Origin: Phycisphaeraceae bacterium
GTDB taxonomy: Bacteria > Planctomycetota > Phycisphaerae > Phycisphaerales > Phycisphaeraceae
NCBI GenBank assembly: GCA_963674705.1
Contig: OY771506.1
Span: forward strand, 1,792,001 to 1,856,000
Reading direction: 5' to 3'
Length of the DNA: 64,000 nt
How positions within the stretch are numbered: position 1 is the first letter of the stretch; the number at the start of each line of letters is the position of its first letter. Below are positions 6,001 to 30,000 of this stretch, one piece after another. Made by a program: the position numbers.

Positions 6001-9000
6001 CGGTACAGCATACACCGATGGCAGTAATGCCGTAGCGACGGATAGTGCGGGCAACGTTTACATCAGCGGTATCACCGCAGGCGATCTTGGCGGAACCAAC
6101 GCAGGTGCAAATGACGCCTTTCTGACAAAGTACGATGCCTCCGGCAACCTCCAATGGAGCCGTCAGATCGGCACAATATCCGACGACCGTAGCTACAGCG
6201 TAGCTGTGGACAGCTCCGGCAACATCTTCATCAGCGGCTTTACAAGGGGGGACCTTAATGGGGGAACGAACGCGGGTAATTATGACGCCTTCGTGGCAAA
6301 ATACGACGCCTCCGGCAGCCTGCTCTGGACCCAACTATTCGGCACGACGGACGTTGATGAGAGCCATGCATTGGCAGTTGACAGCGAGGGCAACGTGTAC
6401 AGCAGCGGTTACACATACGGCGACCTCGGCGGAACCAACGCGGGAGACTTCGATGCCTTTCTCGTCAAGTTCACCGTCCCCGAACCCACAAGCCTCAGCC
6501 TCCTCGCATTAGGCGCGTTGGCGCTGCTGCGACGACGCGGTTGAAGCAAACGCAGGCCAGAGTCTGATCATGCATCCGATCCAACCGTACGACCGGATCG
6601 TCATTAGCCCCCGGCTTGCCGGGGGTGGCTGCACAGAGCTACACGAACCAAACAATCCCGCTCACACCTTCATCAGCCGCGAACCGCCGGCTCGCGCGCC
6701 CCATTCGTCCAACACACGTCACGCACCAGACACACCTCACATCCAACACCCCATTCACCACCACCCCCGGCAAGCCGGGGGCTAACTAGATTCAATCCGA
6801 ATTCATCCGACACAATCTCCGAATCTGCGTCATCTGCGCAATCTGCGGATCACTCTCTTCTTGCCTTCCCTCTTATCTGTGTTCATCCGTGTTCATCGGT
6901 GGCTAAATCTTCTTCACTAACAAGCGACCCATCCCCACCCTCGCCGCAAACCTATAACCACATCTACGTCAGCCAGTTGCCCGCAGCACAACCGGCGGGG
7001 CGGCCGGGTGAGATCCGTTTTCCAACAAGTAATCCACAATCCACATCAGCCCAAGTGGATATCTTGTCGGCAACTTTTGCGCTGCAACGTCCGATAGTGC
7101 CGATACACATACCAGGGGGCCAGAAACGCTGTTTGGTGGAGAATTTTTAAAGAAATGTGAAGCATGGAGGCAAATAGTGTTGAGCAGAGGGGCAAAGTGG
7201 GGTATATTCCCCTCGTCCTGAAGCGAGTAACACCTTGGTTTTTACCGGAACCTATGACCACACGATCGACACAAAGAATCGCCTGGCCATACCGGCCGAA
7301 GTCAGAGCGCAAATCAAGCGCTCGACCAAGGCCAAGGCGGGCGACCCGGTATACCTCTATGTGACACTCGGGACGGACGGGACGCTTTGCCTCTATACGG
7401 AGCAAGGCTACGAGCAGCGGGCCGATGAGCTGGACAACTCGGAAATGGATGCCGAGCAGCTTCTGGAGTATGAACGGATGTTCTACTCCTTGTCCAAACT
7501 CGTCGAGCTCGACAAGCAGGGACGCGTGACTTTGCCCGCCGACCTGTTGACCCGCTCGGGACTGGGCAGCGACGTCGTGCTCATCGGTGTGAAGGACCAC
7601 ATCGAGATCCGCGACAGGCAGGCCTGGAACGAGCACTTGCAGCGGATGTTGGCCGAAAGGCCTGACATCCTCATGAACCCGCGACTCGCGATGCGCAGAC
7701 GAAGGACCGACAGTCAAGGCCAGGATGGCCCGTAAGATCAGGAACACTTAACCAAACGATCAAGGGGTACACCAGCACAACAAACACAAGCCCGAACGCA
7801 CGCGAGCCAAGGCCGGCCCGCAACGTGAAAAGGGCGACAAACATCGGCAAATTCCGCACTTTTTTTATGAATTTGCCCCAGCACCAGCGGAGGTCATGGA
7901 ACGGACTCCAGCCTGTTCGACGTGACCGCATACCAGCCCGCCTGACCAAGGACGGATCGGCGGATAACTGGGCCAAACGCCAGAGCATCAGTGATCGGGT
8001 GCCTTGCAACCGTAATCGATCTGGCGTACGCGGACACGACCGACGGCACCTCTGCTGTTTGTTTGGATTGCACCACGCAAGTCGGCGCCTGTGAAAACGC
8101 GCCCGGTTTGCCCAACCGGTGCAGCATGACTTCCGCCTGTTGTCCGCCAACATTCAAGCAGGTTTTTCTATCCGCGGTCGAACCTTTCTCGACCTGATTG
8201 CGTAGTAAAGATAGGTAAAACAACGGTCGGGCTGAAAAGCCCGTGTACGGTCCCACAACGACTCAAGCACCGTATCCTTCTCCTCCTAAGCCACGCCCGC
8301 CGGTCACCCTCCCGCTGAGCGTGGTTTTTTTACGTCCTGCTCACATGCAACCACATCTTTTTATAAAACAGCTACTTACAAGCACATTATTTGCCCATCC
8401 GTCGAATAAATGCTCGACAGCCCAGCAATCGCACGATAGTATTAAAGACGTGTTGAACTTTATTCCGTGAGGTGAACGACCATGCGACTGACTCGGCTGA
8501 TGCTGCTGGCCTTGTTCATCGTTCTGGCGACGCCGGTCTTCTGGGAGGCGCAGCACTGCGCGTTCGGCTGAGGCGGTGGGTCGGGAGGATCGATCCGCCG
8601 TAGCGGTTCATCGATCCGTCTCACCTCTTCCGGTCGGAAGAGCTCCTCGAAACCAGAGTTGTCACAGGACCGGCGCGATAAGTGCGAACGTATGCTCGAC
8701 CTTGCCGAGCGCATGCTGTCCAATGACCGCCTGCCCGATGCGTATCGCTACGTCATGATCGCAGAGTCCATCGGCAAGTCCGACAGCAGTCTGCTCAGCA
8801 AAGTCAAGCAAACAGCGAACAACGTCAAGACCGCTGCCGAAAAGAAACTCGATGCGGCCGAACAATTCTACGAAAACGAGCAATACACCGAAGCGATCGA
8901 AGCCTACTCAAGCATCTCCGGCCTGCGCAAGCTCGATGTCGCGCGAGATGCGCGGATGAAACTTGCAGAGATACAGCGCAACCCCGCTGTCCGCGCAAGC

Positions 9001-27000: not shown

Positions 27001-30000
27001 TGGTTTGTTCGGCCACCTCGCGGGCATGGTCCGTCACTCCAAAGTCACCGCCGAGATCGACCTGGATACGCTTCCTTCTTTCGATGGCGCACTCGATCTG
27101 TTGGCAAGCGGCATGATCCCCGGCGCGGTCGAGCGTAATAAAGAATACGTCGGCGATGATATTATTTTTGCCGAAGATGTGGATGAACCACGCCTGCACC
27201 TCGGATTCGATGCGCAGACGTCGGGTGGTTTGCTGATCGCGGTCGAGCCGAAGCACGTGGATGAATTGCTAAAAATGCTATCCGCTGATGGCGTGACGGG
27301 ATACGCTGTCGGGCGAATCACCGAAAAGTCGGACGGCCGGATTGTGGCTCAATCCATGGGGGCGACGGTCACAACGCCGGCGGCAAACGAAGCCGAAGAA
27401 GTTGTCGCTTCGCACGCTGCCGTGCAAACACACGAAGCTGTGCCCGTCGGCATCGGTGAATCCCGCCGCGCGTTCGGCGCATTGATGCGCTCGACATCGC
27501 AGGCCGGCACGATCGATGAGAAGACCAAGACACTGATCAACATCTCCCTCGTGACATTGCAGCGCTGCGGCCCCTGTTTGAAGTCACACCTCGGCAAGGC
27601 ACAAAAACTGGGCATCGATGAGAACCGCATCGATGAAGCCATCTGGTGCGCGATAGCGATGGGCGGCGCGTGCGTGAAGGTGTTTTATGATGAGTTTAAG
27701 CAGAATGAATCCGGCGGGGGTGATGGTGGAGTGTATTCGTGTTGTTGAATGGGTGAAAAGAATTAGCCACGAAAAGACACAGAATACACAAAAAGGGCTG
27801 GGATTTGTGTCTTTGATAGCCGCATTGCGATGCTATGCGGCGGTAACAGAAGTTGTTGAGCATTTGGGATAACGTCGCGGCGATCTGCGAACGTACGCTA
27901 CTCGGGAGGGTATAGCCGCGACCAGTGGTCGCGCAGGTATTGTGTTTGTTGAATGTGAAGAGCGCGACCGATGGTCGCGGCTATACAGGCGGTTGGAAAT
28001 GGCGAATGCACGAATGTCGAATGACGGATTACAAATGACGAGTGTGTGAGTAGGTCATTTGGCATTTGTCATTTGAGCATTCTTTCGTTATTCGACATTC
28101 TTTAATCGTGCATTTCAAGCACTCAGGCCCTCACCCCGGCCCTCTCCCGAGGGGAGAGGGGGTAGATGCATATAACATTGTGTGAACAGCCCCACGCGGG
28201 AGCGTGGTGTTAATTACCCGACCAGGATGGTCGGGCTATATCTAATGCAGTTGTTATTTGCCGGGCACGGGTTGGGGTGGGTTTGCTTCTGGGGTCTTCG
28301 GGGTTTTGCCGGCGACAGTCAGTGTGATGGCGGGGCAGTTGGTGCATTCCATGCAGCGGATGCAGGATGCGTTGTTGATGGATTGATCGAGTTTGACATC
28401 GTACTTGCATCGGCTGCGGCAGAGGTTGCATTCGGTGCACTTGGGGGCGTTGTAGTGCAGGTAGAGGAGGCTGAATCGGTTGAAGATCGCGAAGATGCCG
28501 CCGAGCGGGCAGAAGATTCGGCACCACGGGCGGTAGGTGAAGAAAGCTAAGAAGAGGACGACGCCGGTGACGATGAGTTTGATCGTGTTGGGGATGAACA
28601 GTTGTCCGCGATAGATTGATTGGCCAAGCGCGGCTTCGAGCGCGCCGGCGGGGCAGACGTTACAGAAGAAAAGCGGGTGTTCGTCGCCGAAGAAGAAGGG
28701 GATGAGCAGGACGAGTCCGATGAGCGTGACGAATCGGCCGTAGCCTAGCCAGCTTGGGATGGAGTATTTGGGTGTGGGGATTTTCCCGAGCAGGTCCTGG
28801 AAGAAGCCGAAGGGGCATGCCCAACCGCAGACGGCTGTGCCGAAGATCCCGCCGACGGTGATCAGCACGCCGAGGATCATCAGCGGCCACATGTGCATCG
28901 CGGCGAACTGCGACATGAGCCCAATCGGGCAAGCGACTGTTGCGAGCGGGCATGCGTAGCAGTGGAAGACGCAGCCGGGCACGGAATGCCAACGCAGTAG
29001 AAGTGGGTCGAGCCAGACAGCGAGAAAAGCGGTCTGCACCCAGGGGCGTAGTTTGCCGAGGTTCAGTCGGCGACGGGGGATGTTTGGTTTGGATGATTCG
29101 GCCATGGCACGCATGACCCGGCGGGGGTCACTTCACTCACGTCGGGCAAAAATCGTTCGGGGTCGTTTCGCCAGACTTCTTCGCGTCTTGCGGGCCCTGA
29201 TCCGTAAGCGCGTCGGCCTGATCACCCAGGAATTGTTGGATCGCCAGATCGAGTTCTGATTTTGGTGGTGGCGGCGGCGGTGGTTTGCGTGGTCCGCCGA
29301 CGGTGACGGCTTGAATGAGCTGCCCTTCCGAGAGGACGACCTTGCCGTCGTTGAAGATATCGTGCTTGCGGGTGGTGGCGAAGCCCGCCAGCGCGATGCC
29401 GATGATGACAAGCATTGCGGCGACCCACCACGAGCGTGTGCCCGAGGGATGGCCCCACTTGTCGATGGGCGGCTGTGGCTTGATCCGCATTTTTTTCTTT
29501 TTGCGTGCCACCGGTAAAACGCCTTTCAATGCACGGCTGCAACGTGTCAATACACGCGCGGCCTGCGGGAACGGAGGTGCATGGGAATCGAACCCACCCG
29601 GGACCGTTAAAGCCCCACACTGGTTTTGAAGACCAGGAGCGTCACCAGACCGCCGATCACCTCCCGCGGCTGGTGCATTTTATCAGGTATCGGCATGTGG
29701 GGATATGTTGGGGTTTTTATTTTTTGGTATTAGCCACAGATCAACACAGATTAAGCGGAAGCCTGGCGAACTTGCGTGGCATCATTTTTAGCCACGAAAA
29801 GGCACAAAATACACAGAAGGTTTTGAGAAGGGCGTTTGATATTGATGGGTGTTGAACCCATAAGGAACCCGGCCCTCACCCGGGCCATATTCCGGGGGCT
29901 CCCGCGGGGAGAGGGAGCTCATCTATATAGATACGGGATTAGATCGGTGCGATACATCGGGTTGATCTGGCGATCAGTTTGTGTGATGAAGTGCATTGAT

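Follow-up and report, generated by a model that had tools for sequence, protein, structure and literature searches.

Selenocysteine Machinery and Four Very Likely Selenoprotein Genes in a 21-kb Island of a Phycisphaeraceae Genome

Gene Content of the Island

The window is a 64,000-nucleotide stretch of contig OY771506.1 from a Phycisphaeraceae bacterium (assembly GCA_963674705.1). It holds a 21-kb island that joins the machinery for selenocysteine (Sec) insertion to four genes that very likely use Sec, from three protein families absent from current catalogues. The features were as follows, with U marking the predicted Sec residue.

8482..9672, + strand: gene A, predicted selenoprotein; signal-like N-terminus, H-C-x-x-G-U-G-G-G (U 8569-8571), Gly/Ser linker, TPR-like helices
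9944..10938, + strand: IS element, a single-copy passenger; DDE transposase at 10045-10920, terminal inverted repeats
11058..11852, - strand: ATP-dependent activase (BcrAD/HgdC type), TIGR00241 255 bits; accessory cassette
11849..14328, - strand: two HGD-D family subunits (PF06050), NF040772 66 and 71 bits, under the cut-off of 350; accessory cassette
14350..15591, - strand: double-cubane-cluster reductase, NF040772 418 bits vs. cut-off 350; accessory cassette
15594..16403, - strand: SAM methyltransferase (Methyltransf_11), under all named NCBIfam cut-offs; accessory cassette
16564..17967, + strand: gene B, predicted selenoprotein; signal-like N-terminus, all-beta body, C-terminal FN3/Ig-like domain, YG-U-GG-T-C (U 17797-17799)
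17814..17830, + strand: SECIS-like hairpin of B; 6-bp stem, RUGGC loop
18048..20450, + strand: carboxypeptidase-regulatory-like repeat protein; C-terminal TlpA/ResA-type thioredoxin fold without CxxC (DxxQRPSR type)
21189..22604, + strand: selA, TIGR00474 519 bits
22764..24707, + strand: selB, TIGR00475 306 bits; winged helix
24751..26073, + strand: gene C, predicted selenoprotein, a distant paralogue of B; YG-U-GG-I-C (U 25939-25941)
25956..25972, + strand: SECIS-like hairpin inside gene C
26168..27748, + strand: selD, Cys form; N-terminal six-Cys segment, C-terminal CMD domain with CxxC, Cys-Cys end
28254..29114, - strand: NapH/Fer4_5-like membrane polyferredoxin, predicted partner of D
29100..29118, - strand: SECIS-like hairpin of D, which holds both in-frame AUGs (29114, 29105) of the polyferredoxin gene
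29128..29490, - strand: gene D, predicted selenoprotein; one membrane helix, C-terminal C-P-T-U-V-K-stop (U 29139-29137)
29572..29664, - strand: tRNA-Sec (UCA), upstream of D on the same strand; ARAGORN, Rfam RF01852 71.5 bits

The co-location of selA, selB, selD and tRNA-Sec reported in the survey's finding was confirmed, with all three proteins above cut-off (selD at 339 bits). Its four UGA-recoded genes had in-frame UGAs at 8569, 17797, 25939 and 29139 (- strand). Also present were the activase, the methyltransferase, the carboxypeptidase-repeat protein and the Fer4_5 polyferredoxin. Three HGD-D genes were also found, although only 14350-15591 passed the double-cubane model. The real start of gene C may lie up to 80 nt downstream of 24751. 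Signal peptides of the island proteins were judged on hydropathy alone; the description of the selenoproteins as exported does not fit D, a single-helix membrane protein. Promoter and terminator scans at the island gave results near chance.

SelD proved to be of the Cys type, as the survey had it, with C-x-x-K at the Sec position in addition to the two extra domains, and a related SelD fusion was found in 10 of 80 B-family loci. The protein ends in Cys-Cys at a true stop (TAA in relative G117). Sec at this C-terminus (CC-UGA) was rejected, given that TAA and the lack of a conserved extension. The idea that the N-terminal segment resembles ferredoxin-thioredoxin reductase was unsupported, since a PDB sequence search with this segment gave no significant match.

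Conservation of the In-Frame UGA Codons

The UGAs of all four genes were conserved across genomes and followed by conserved sequence, in the case of A over six loci only. In 80 homologous loci of the B/C type, TGA stood at 100 of 102 motif sites (100 of 101 among true sites), and neither TAA nor TAG ever replaced it in the homologue sets examined. Cys homologues at the U position of B/C were found in P0007, L068, G214 and G366; none occurred among 120 listed database homologues of D, and none was seen for A. Of 24 genomes with the TGA form, 23 carried selA; it was absent from both genomes that have only a Cys form.

The bacterial SECIS is modeled as a hairpin 16-37 nt past the UGA with a G early in its loop (PMC13188914, section 5). 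Hairpins of this kind were found by covariation in B/C, at 32 of 32 sites in D, and as strong hairpins in A. In the B type, 6/6 pairing was seen in 90 of 93 unique homologous sites, with compensatory changes, whereas 1000 runs of synonymous recoding gave a mean of 2.6 and a maximum of 9 fully paired sites. The AUGGC loop and the gene C hairpin (−7.1 kcal/mol) fit the SECIS consensus only loosely. The UGA of A was at the same place in five of five named-record loci and in G262, where the homologue adjoins selD and has no Cys before U. The strong hairpin after it was not conserved in sequence among A homologues. Protein A gave only weak TPR matches, and a phylum-wide search with its alignment returned mostly generic TPR matches.

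In favor of ordinary stops, with the read-through frames arising by chance, databases stop 129 of the best 150 B homologues and all 120 listed D homologues (which end at CxT) at these codons, and D has just two residues past U. We consider this very improbable, as the post-UGA sequence is conserved and completes a folded domain, many homologues have open frames of about 260-590 residues downstream, and the Cys homologues, the covarying SECIS, the co-occurrence with selA and the lack of TAA or TAG in these sets all argue for recoding. Recoding is well supported, and A, B, C and D are very likely selenoproteins. Their novelty was likewise upheld: B, C and D matched none of the NCBIfam families, A showed only weak TPR-type matches, and Table 1 of the 2026 catalogue (PMC13188914) has no entry with such an architecture.

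Distribution, Transfer and Other Sec Sites

The B-type domain was present in 28 of 301 Planctomycetota genomes and also in Verrucomicrobiota; it has 711 cluster representatives at a threshold of E 1e-30, rising to 3812 at E 0.001. Judged from these sequence searches, the selenoprotein families are not specific to the island. In most cases the module was over 10 kb away from sel genes or sat on a different contig; selA adjoined 6 of 80 loci, and linkage to sel genes was seen in 11 of 27 sampled genomes. Since the module is widespread and mostly away from sel genes, the island is one packaged instance of a phylum-wide system.

Within the genus, selB was above cut-off only in this genome and its sister G087, and 16 of 144 genomes of the family carried it. 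The view of the Sec module as patchy and transferred was strengthened by a synteny break after mraZ and by the rejection of SelA monophyly in the family (p-AU 0.0018), and horizontal acquisition of the island is likely. No att-like repeat of the tRNA end was found, and island GC did not depart from that of the genome. Gene order had been described as whole in relative G057; gene C is missing there.

Genome-wide scans recovered no other credible Sec site, in agreement with the survey. The motif scan gave 254 candidate sites of 3323 and the hairpin scan 119 of 3959; both recovered all four island sites and were judged by eye. A coding-score scan was weak, as it recovered one of the four. Internal TGAs at 4755524 and 4992704 were rejected, the former for a second in-frame stop in its gene and the latter for two unrelated frames on either side. 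The four genes appear to be the only Sec clients of the genome, in which FDH, selU and yqeB were not found. FDH or Sec-SelD are the usual anchors of the Sec trait (PMC13188914); this genome appears to retain the Sec apparatus for these genes alone, without either.

The Sec-Bearing Domain and Its TlpA-Fold Partner

The U and C of the B-type domain lie between two strands of an FN3/Ig-like sandwich. A fold search with the Sec domain matched FN3/Ig-like structures in general (best Z 9.1, rmsd 2.4, 88 aligned), with nDsbD outside the top 50; its comparison with PDB sequences gave nothing significant, and whole-protein Foldseek nothing meaningful. Genomes carried up to nine copies of the domain. 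B often carries a fused lectin-like or multi-helix membrane domain, an arrangement that would suit a binding role as well. Because the long B forms fuse to such domains and not to the repeat/TlpA protein, B and the repeat protein were rejected as a split gene.

The TlpA-fold partner adjoined B in 58 of 80 loci. Its C-terminal domain resembles TlpA/ResA in fold only: their CxxC is missing, and a DxxQRPSR motif was present in 43 of 44 parsed homologous domains. It is the sole protein of this type in the genome.

Gene D and the Polyferredoxin

D was located upstream of the polyferredoxin in 32 of 33 polyferredoxin matches, and a stop followed 2-3 residues past U in 31 of 32 D junctions. The polyferredoxin start fell in frame inside the D hairpin in 27 of 32 unique junctions, compared with 6 and 7 in shifted control windows; this overlap could result from mere operon compaction. 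All six island-type genomes carried the polyferredoxin, compared with none of ten other selB-bearing genomes of the family. It was found in 17 of 27 other B-domain genomes (the other ten had no match at E 1e-40), and within 10 kb of B in only 23 of 80 loci.

A D-polyferredoxin complex model scored 0.70, compared with 0.01 for the best of three controls; among 157 solved pairs 116 reached the mark for this score, as did 2 of 215 mismatched ones. Runs shared at least 79% of contacts, partner pLDDT was at least 65, and D was modeled without its last three residues. D is therefore predicted, on the model, to bind the polyferredoxin, its helix packing with the N-terminus by the C-terminal dicluster domain and the C-terminal part by the Cys-rich N-terminal loop. 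The polyferredoxin had no sequence relative in the PDB. The one-helix partner of a homologous polyferredoxin (HH prob 100) is instead a CxxC protein from family CD1871A (36.8 vs. cut-off 32), so the partner slot carries a redox-type motif in both forms. The conserved core of the module is B, the Cys-less TlpA-fold partner, D and the NapH-like polyferredoxin.

The Double-Cubane Cassette

In sister genome G087, whose proteins are 92-98% identical, the five-gene HGD-D/activase/methyltransferase cassette is lost, leaving a decayed remnant, and all four UGA genes are kept. The IS element, which the survey did not mention, is absent from G087, and G117 has no cassette beside its sel genes. Cassette genes occurred in 2-4 of 80 B-family loci, and their proteins had no signal peptides by hydropathy. 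The survey's treatment of the whole island as one system was not supported on these grounds. NF040772, a narrower model than the HGD-D family counted in the survey, was above cut-off in 3 of 15 selB-bearing relatives and in 13 of 24 TGA-form genomes, and lay near selA in four other genomes. The protein at 14350-15591 has seven Cys at a near spacing of 18-18-29-163-28-32, which is not an exact match to the seven-Cys pattern used, and the methyltransferase weakly resembled ArsM models. Double-cubane genes are known to adjoin SAO operons and to track SelD, 955 of 970 being in SelD genomes (10.1101/2022.07.06.499078). Given this published tie and the retention of the UGA genes in G087, the cassette is seen, from its distribution, as an accessory, dispensable SelD-linked neighbor, possibly for selenium handling.

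Discussion

We infer an envelope redox function for the module. DsbD-type mechanisms employ a membrane conduit, a periplasmic Ig-fold domain and a TlpA/ResA-fold partner. By analogy, the island would provide a membrane conduit, an Ig-like domain whose loop bears a chalcogen pair, and a TlpA/ResA-fold partner, and we give somewhat less than an even chance to the module being a ferredoxin-fed, DsbD-like selenol relay that passes electrons from cytoplasmic Fe-S clusters through the membrane to external selenol/thiol pairs. Sec machinery, conserved UGAs and covarying hairpins are in place, and the D helix is predicted to pack on the polyferredoxin. The latter would reduce the CxTU selenenylsulfide of D at the outer face, the flexible D tail would in turn reduce the B and C Ig-like domains at their U-GG-x-C hairpin, and the Cys-less TlpA-fold protein may be a scaffold or substrate holder. 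A Sec-decoding ribosome on D would go three codons on and open the SECIS, which otherwise conceals the polyferredoxin start, so that synthesis of the conduit would depend on the supply of selenium. Against the relay, the partner has no cysteines to reduce, and the genome has DsbD/CcdA-type genes (two above cut-off) and many Cys thioredoxin-fold proteins; against the switch, 5 of 32 junctions have no in-frame start in the hairpin. A broader proposal seems rather doubtful, namely that Planctomycetota and Verrucomicrobiota run an undescribed, DsbD-independent trans-membrane reducing pathway, from an Fe-S membrane protein through D to the selenols of Ig-fold B/C. Its parts would come from a selenoprotein family that ranks among the largest uncatalogued ones in bacteria, and its gate would be a SECIS that also senses selenium and switches translation of the following gene.

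The selenoproteins could instead bind a soft metal, metalloid or organometallic in the envelope and pass it on to the methyltransferase and double-cubane reductase in the cytoplasm, a role already put forward for SAO. The SAO and SelD association of double-cubane genes, the NF040772 distribution, the ArsM-like methyltransferase and the Cys-Cys or CxxxU ligands in SelD and A are consistent with this; we find it unlikely, given that G087 keeps all four UGA genes without the cassette, that few B loci have cassette genes, and that a transporter, a MerB-like lyase and an efflux pump are all absent from the island. It is similarly improbable that B and C serve, along with their partners, as surface or periplasmic scaffolds with a structural or redox-sensing U-C pair, D and the polyferredoxin being a separate small system that shares the Sec locus. 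All-beta, adhesin-like folds, the multiple domain copies, the lectin-like and membrane-domain fusions and the Cys-less partner would suit such scaffolds, but TGA at nearly all true sites, with Cys forms rare, would be costly for a structural bond, and the polyferredoxin tracks B in the family. Selenium scavenging or storage, in which envelope selenoproteins and the conduit reduce or capture Se oxyanions and feed the Cys-rich SelD fusion, would explain the repeated sel-gene linkage, the extra domains on SelD and a self-serving system with no other client. The benefit is unclear if the sole product is the system itself, and Cys forms persist in genomes without selA, which makes this reading quite improbable.

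SAO and Tso are multi-selenoprotein operons (Haft and Gwadz; Haft and Tolstoy; PMC13188914, section 9). As these sources outline them, the island shares with them a neighborhood of several functionally uncharacterized selenoprotein genes, some members being exported, and an adjacent double-cubane reductase and activase. It matches no Sao or Tso model, however, is packaged with selA/B/D and tRNA-Sec, and has Sec in an FN3/Ig-like domain and a membrane-anchored tail. In that outline, SAO comprises nine sao genes including an ABC transporter, the SaoL lyase and the SaoE pump, none of which has a counterpart here. To the NF040772 protein and activase, with their published SelD link, the island adds two further HGD-D subunits and the methyltransferase, and the set is dispensable in the sister genome.

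The pair of a CD1871A-family CxxC protein and a 4Fe-4S protein (NF040920) has the same arrangement, a homologous membrane polyferredoxin after a small one-helix protein ending in CxxC. D and three relatives had no NF040920 match, though, D could not be aligned to a true member, and D differs in its CxTU and in a SECIS that spans the start codon of the following gene. The polyferredoxin resembles NapH/MauN/NosR in its Fer4_5 CxxxCP motifs, membrane helices and C-terminal dicluster domain, but scored 40 bits vs. cut-offs above 200, has extra conserved Cys segments and is not accompanied by nap or mau genes. DsbD, CcdA and ScsB are outlined in PMC3322552 as transmembrane reducing systems; in the island, unlike these, PF02683 is absent (three matches lie elsewhere in the genome, as do the real DsbD genes), the conduit is an Fe-S protein and the partner lacks CxxC.

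In databases, most of the best B-type homologues stop at the Sec codon and are thus mis-annotated, some of them losing hundreds of residues. As the domain is also widespread, the bacterial selenoproteome catalogue lacks a large family. Most known selenoproteins have a thioredoxin fold (PMC13188914, section 7), whereas in the B type the residue sits in a fibronectin/Ig-like domain. If a SECIS does switch the downstream gene, it would be a simple new selenium sensor. Direct tests appear feasible in a cultured carrier, the Anaerohalosphaeraceae bacterium of named record L054, which bears no MAG label.

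Island Setting and Gene Content

The island lies on a single contig of 5.54 Mb (56.6% GC) in G000, the genome under study, whose nearest named records are Phycisphaeraceae; the window covers positions 1792001-1856000 of this contig (C1). The survey had described a selenocysteine (Sec) island with selA, selB, selD, and tRNA-Sec, and this was confirmed: the three sel genes passed their NCBIfam cut-offs, and tRNA-Sec was detected by both ARAGORN and Rfam. SelD showed all three features ascribed to it, namely Cys in place of Sec, an N-terminal segment with six Cys that is conserved, and a CMD domain. 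The four genes claimed as UGA-recoded, here A, B, C, and D, each carried one in-frame UGA. They are predicted to represent three uncatalogued selenoprotein families (B/C, D, and A), one of them large.

Features of the island (window positions)
7235-7735, mraZ, left flank
8569, in-frame UGA of A
9944-10938, IS
11058-16403, minus strand, cassette comprising a methyltransferase, a single true double-cubane protein, a pair of more distantly related HGD-D subunits, and their activase
17797, in-frame UGA of B
25939, in-frame UGA of C
28254-29114, minus strand, polyferredoxin (NapH/Fer4_5-like membrane protein)
29139, minus strand, in-frame UGA of D
30208-31191, sigma-54 activator gene, right flank

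The single-copy IS has inserted into a REP-like palindrome in the gap separating A from the activase gene. A palindromic repeat (13704-13790) forms an in-frame insertion in the coding sequence of the HGD-D gene at 13243-14328; about 52 copies of at least 60 nt were found in G000, one of them intergenic at 22635-22714. Genes for PEP-CTERM-type exported proteins, with the motif recognized by eye, occur on both flanks (3819-6544 and 32312-34666).

The B/C Family

UGA recoding in B, C, and D is almost certain. Among the database homologues of B, 11 of 14 stopped exactly before the UGA, and one read YG-C-GG-T-C. The 80 B loci, drawn from Sedimentisphaerales, Phycisphaerae, and Verrucomicrobiota plus one Omnitrophota record, gave 102 matches to the shared B/C motif, YG-U-GG-x-C (100 TGA, one TGT, and one spurious), and in many of them the frame continued past the TGA for ~260-590 further residues. 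A hairpin of 6 bp, closed by an RUGGC loop, was completely paired at 90 of 93 unique B/C sites, which are mutually related and so not 93 independent events; in 1000 synonymous recodings, full pairing averaged 2.6 sites and never exceeded 9. The stem covaried on both sides (CUC/GAG 58, UAC/GUA 26, CAC/GUG 5).

A profile search retrieved 3812 B-type representatives at E 0.001; tightening the threshold to 1e-30 left 711, and 129 of the best 150 terminated in [YF]G. Of 301 Planctomycetota genomes sampled, 28 had the domain, and 57 of their 64 matches held one TGA. selA accompanied the TGA form in 23 of 24 other genomes; it was not detected in G214 or G366, the B-type copies of which carry Cys. AlphaFold predicted an all-beta B (pLDDT 84.9) in which residues 349-451 fold as an FN3/Ig-like sandwich; this resemblance is to the fold in general (best Z 8.9-9.1). 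The U and C of the motif would lie in a lower-confidence loop joining two strands.

Several variants were observed. A subfamily reading PFG-U-DG-T-C (L098, L039, L044, and L070; cluster c10) carried the same SECIS hairpin. In G058, a stand-alone B-type Sec domain was fused to a multi-helix membrane domain (L016:14017-15270, contig C71); such fusions were common among the 80 loci, with ~285 residues past the UGA missing from the annotation. Homologues of ~393 residues in L037, L047, L051, L063, and L083 ended without the Sec motif, often with a separate LamG-like gene downstream, and the Sec site has possibly been lost there.

D and the Polyferredoxin

A one-helix gene ending in C-x-T-U preceded 32 of 33 polyferredoxin matches (near-duplicates counted). 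In the lone exception, a CD1871A-family CxxC protein precedes a homologous polyferredoxin; the arrangement is alike, but D itself has no detectable relationship to CD1871A. The D profile retrieved 348 proteins, and all 120 of those listed ended at CxT.

Structural modeling supports binding of D to the polyferredoxin. The complex model scored 0.70, a mark reached by 116 of 157 solved pairs and 2 of 215 mismatched pairs, compared to 0.01 for the best of three controls; runs shared at least 79% of contacts, with partner pLDDT of at least 65. In the model, the D helix would pack against the first membrane helix of the polyferredoxin, its N-terminus against the dicluster domain, and residues 41-66 against the Cys-rich loop, with the CxT tail outside the confident interface.

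Across 32 unique junctions, the stop codon followed the U of D by two residues in 28, three in three, and 12 in one, and a hairpin began 15-23 nt past the U. At 27 of the 32 junctions, this hairpin enclosed an in-frame polyferredoxin start codon (AUG or GUG); control windows displaced by 24 and 48 nt gave 6 and 7. We hypothesize that the SECIS of D acts as a translational switch for the polyferredoxin gene. If a ribosome halts at the UGA, the stem would stay closed and hide the start; one that arrives at the true stop would get as far as the stem base. Ribosome footprint size underlies this argument. Among the matches listed for SECIS and translational coupling, no title or abstract opening described such a switch.

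Gene A

Recoding in A (8482-9672) is very likely, with thinner support than for B-D. Its UGA was retained in five Phycisphaeraceae loci and in G262 (L161, contig C88), where it adjoins selD and no Cys precedes the U; a search for a Cys homologue found none. At the start of the gene (8482-8571), a signal-like segment and then small residues lead up to the U, and a Gly/Ser tether comes after it, so Sec may begin the mature protein or lie close to its start. In lipoproteins, the +1 Cys follows small residues after the signal, and the placement in A resembles this pattern. A is possibly a Sec-initiated mature protein or a Sec-lipoprotein.

Other Sec Clients

Gene-model scans of G000 recovered all four island UGA sites, and 119 hairpin and 254 motif sites yielded no other recognisable selenoprotein. 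This genome yielded no selU, no yqeB, and no molybdopterin protein of the FDH type (best E 1e-7), and its AhpC/TSA (17), thioredoxin (14), and rhodanese (4) matches were free of internal stops. A-D are probably its only Sec clients, although a further short one may exist. The survey's finding of sole Sec use probably holds for G000 and does not extend to relatives, because G058 holds an extra B-type gene outside its island. Two internal-TGA candidates elsewhere in G000 were rejected. A gene that we take to be esterase-like, with two in-frame stops (G000:C1:4754270-4755791), is likely a pseudogene. At L202:3540-3803 and L204:3416-3658, SelD is of the Sec form, and standard annotation breaks it at the UGA; its Cys-rich extension at the N-terminus is of another type and matched no NCBIfam model.

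Gene Neighborhoods and the Accessory Cassette

A repeat/TlpA-fold protein accompanied B in 58 of 80 loci, and the polyferredoxin did so in 23; selD (11), selB (9), and selA (6) were less frequent, and cassette genes were near B in only 2-4. The TlpA/ResA-like domain of the repeat protein (Atlas match 0.92, 147 shared features) lacked CxxC in 43 of 44 parsed cases. All 6 island-type genomes had the polyferredoxin, and none of the family's 10 other genomes with selB did; among the remaining carriers of the B-type domain, it was present in 17 of 27. A DsbD-like relay from polyferredoxin to D to B/C across the membrane could be envisaged as an envelope reducing system, a reading we hold tentatively.

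The cassette and the UGA genes had been proposed as one system, which was not supported. The sister genome G087 (one contig, 97% complete) lacks the double-cubane gene; of the methyltransferase/double-cubane junction, a decayed piece survives. A-D are nonetheless all kept, and the cassette is therefore accessory. The association of double-cubane proteins with SelD has been published (10.1101/2022.07.06.499078). A double-cubane match above cut-off in G199 (C5:97424-98503) had one TGA inside the match.

Relation to Catalogued Selenoproteins

NCBIfam release 20 contained no model matching B, C, or D. Table 1 of PMC13188914 (119 families, including those of Haft and Tolstoy 2025) had no B-, C-, or D-like entry; this comparison covers main texts, and supplements could still matter. 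The text of that 2026 review does not mention Planctomycetes, and term searches of passages from PMC13326102, PMC13745706, and PMC12013277 returned no mention of planctomycetes or Verrucomicrobia. Selenoproteins fdhA and fmdB are reported in other planctomycetes (PMC4807772). The island is akin to known multi-selenoprotein operons.

Probable Transfer and SelA Lineages

The proposal of a patchy, transferred unit was supported for the Sec module. Of 144 family genomes, 16 had selB above the cut-off; for the genus the count was 2 of 11. Nine congeners had loci for synteny comparison: in six without selB, mraZ was followed by a gene located 1.46 Mb away in G000, and the upstream gene of G000 was common to seven. 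A quick SelA tree (40 rows) placed six island and two Verrucomicrobiota sequences on one branch (SH-aLRT 100), separate from eight other family SelA. AU tests (LG+G4, 32 of the 40 rows) rejected a single family clade (p 0.0018) and did not reject an island-only clade (p 0.33). In ten other family genomes (L149-L158), SelA and SelB formed a lineage of their own, and both B and the polyferredoxin were lacking.
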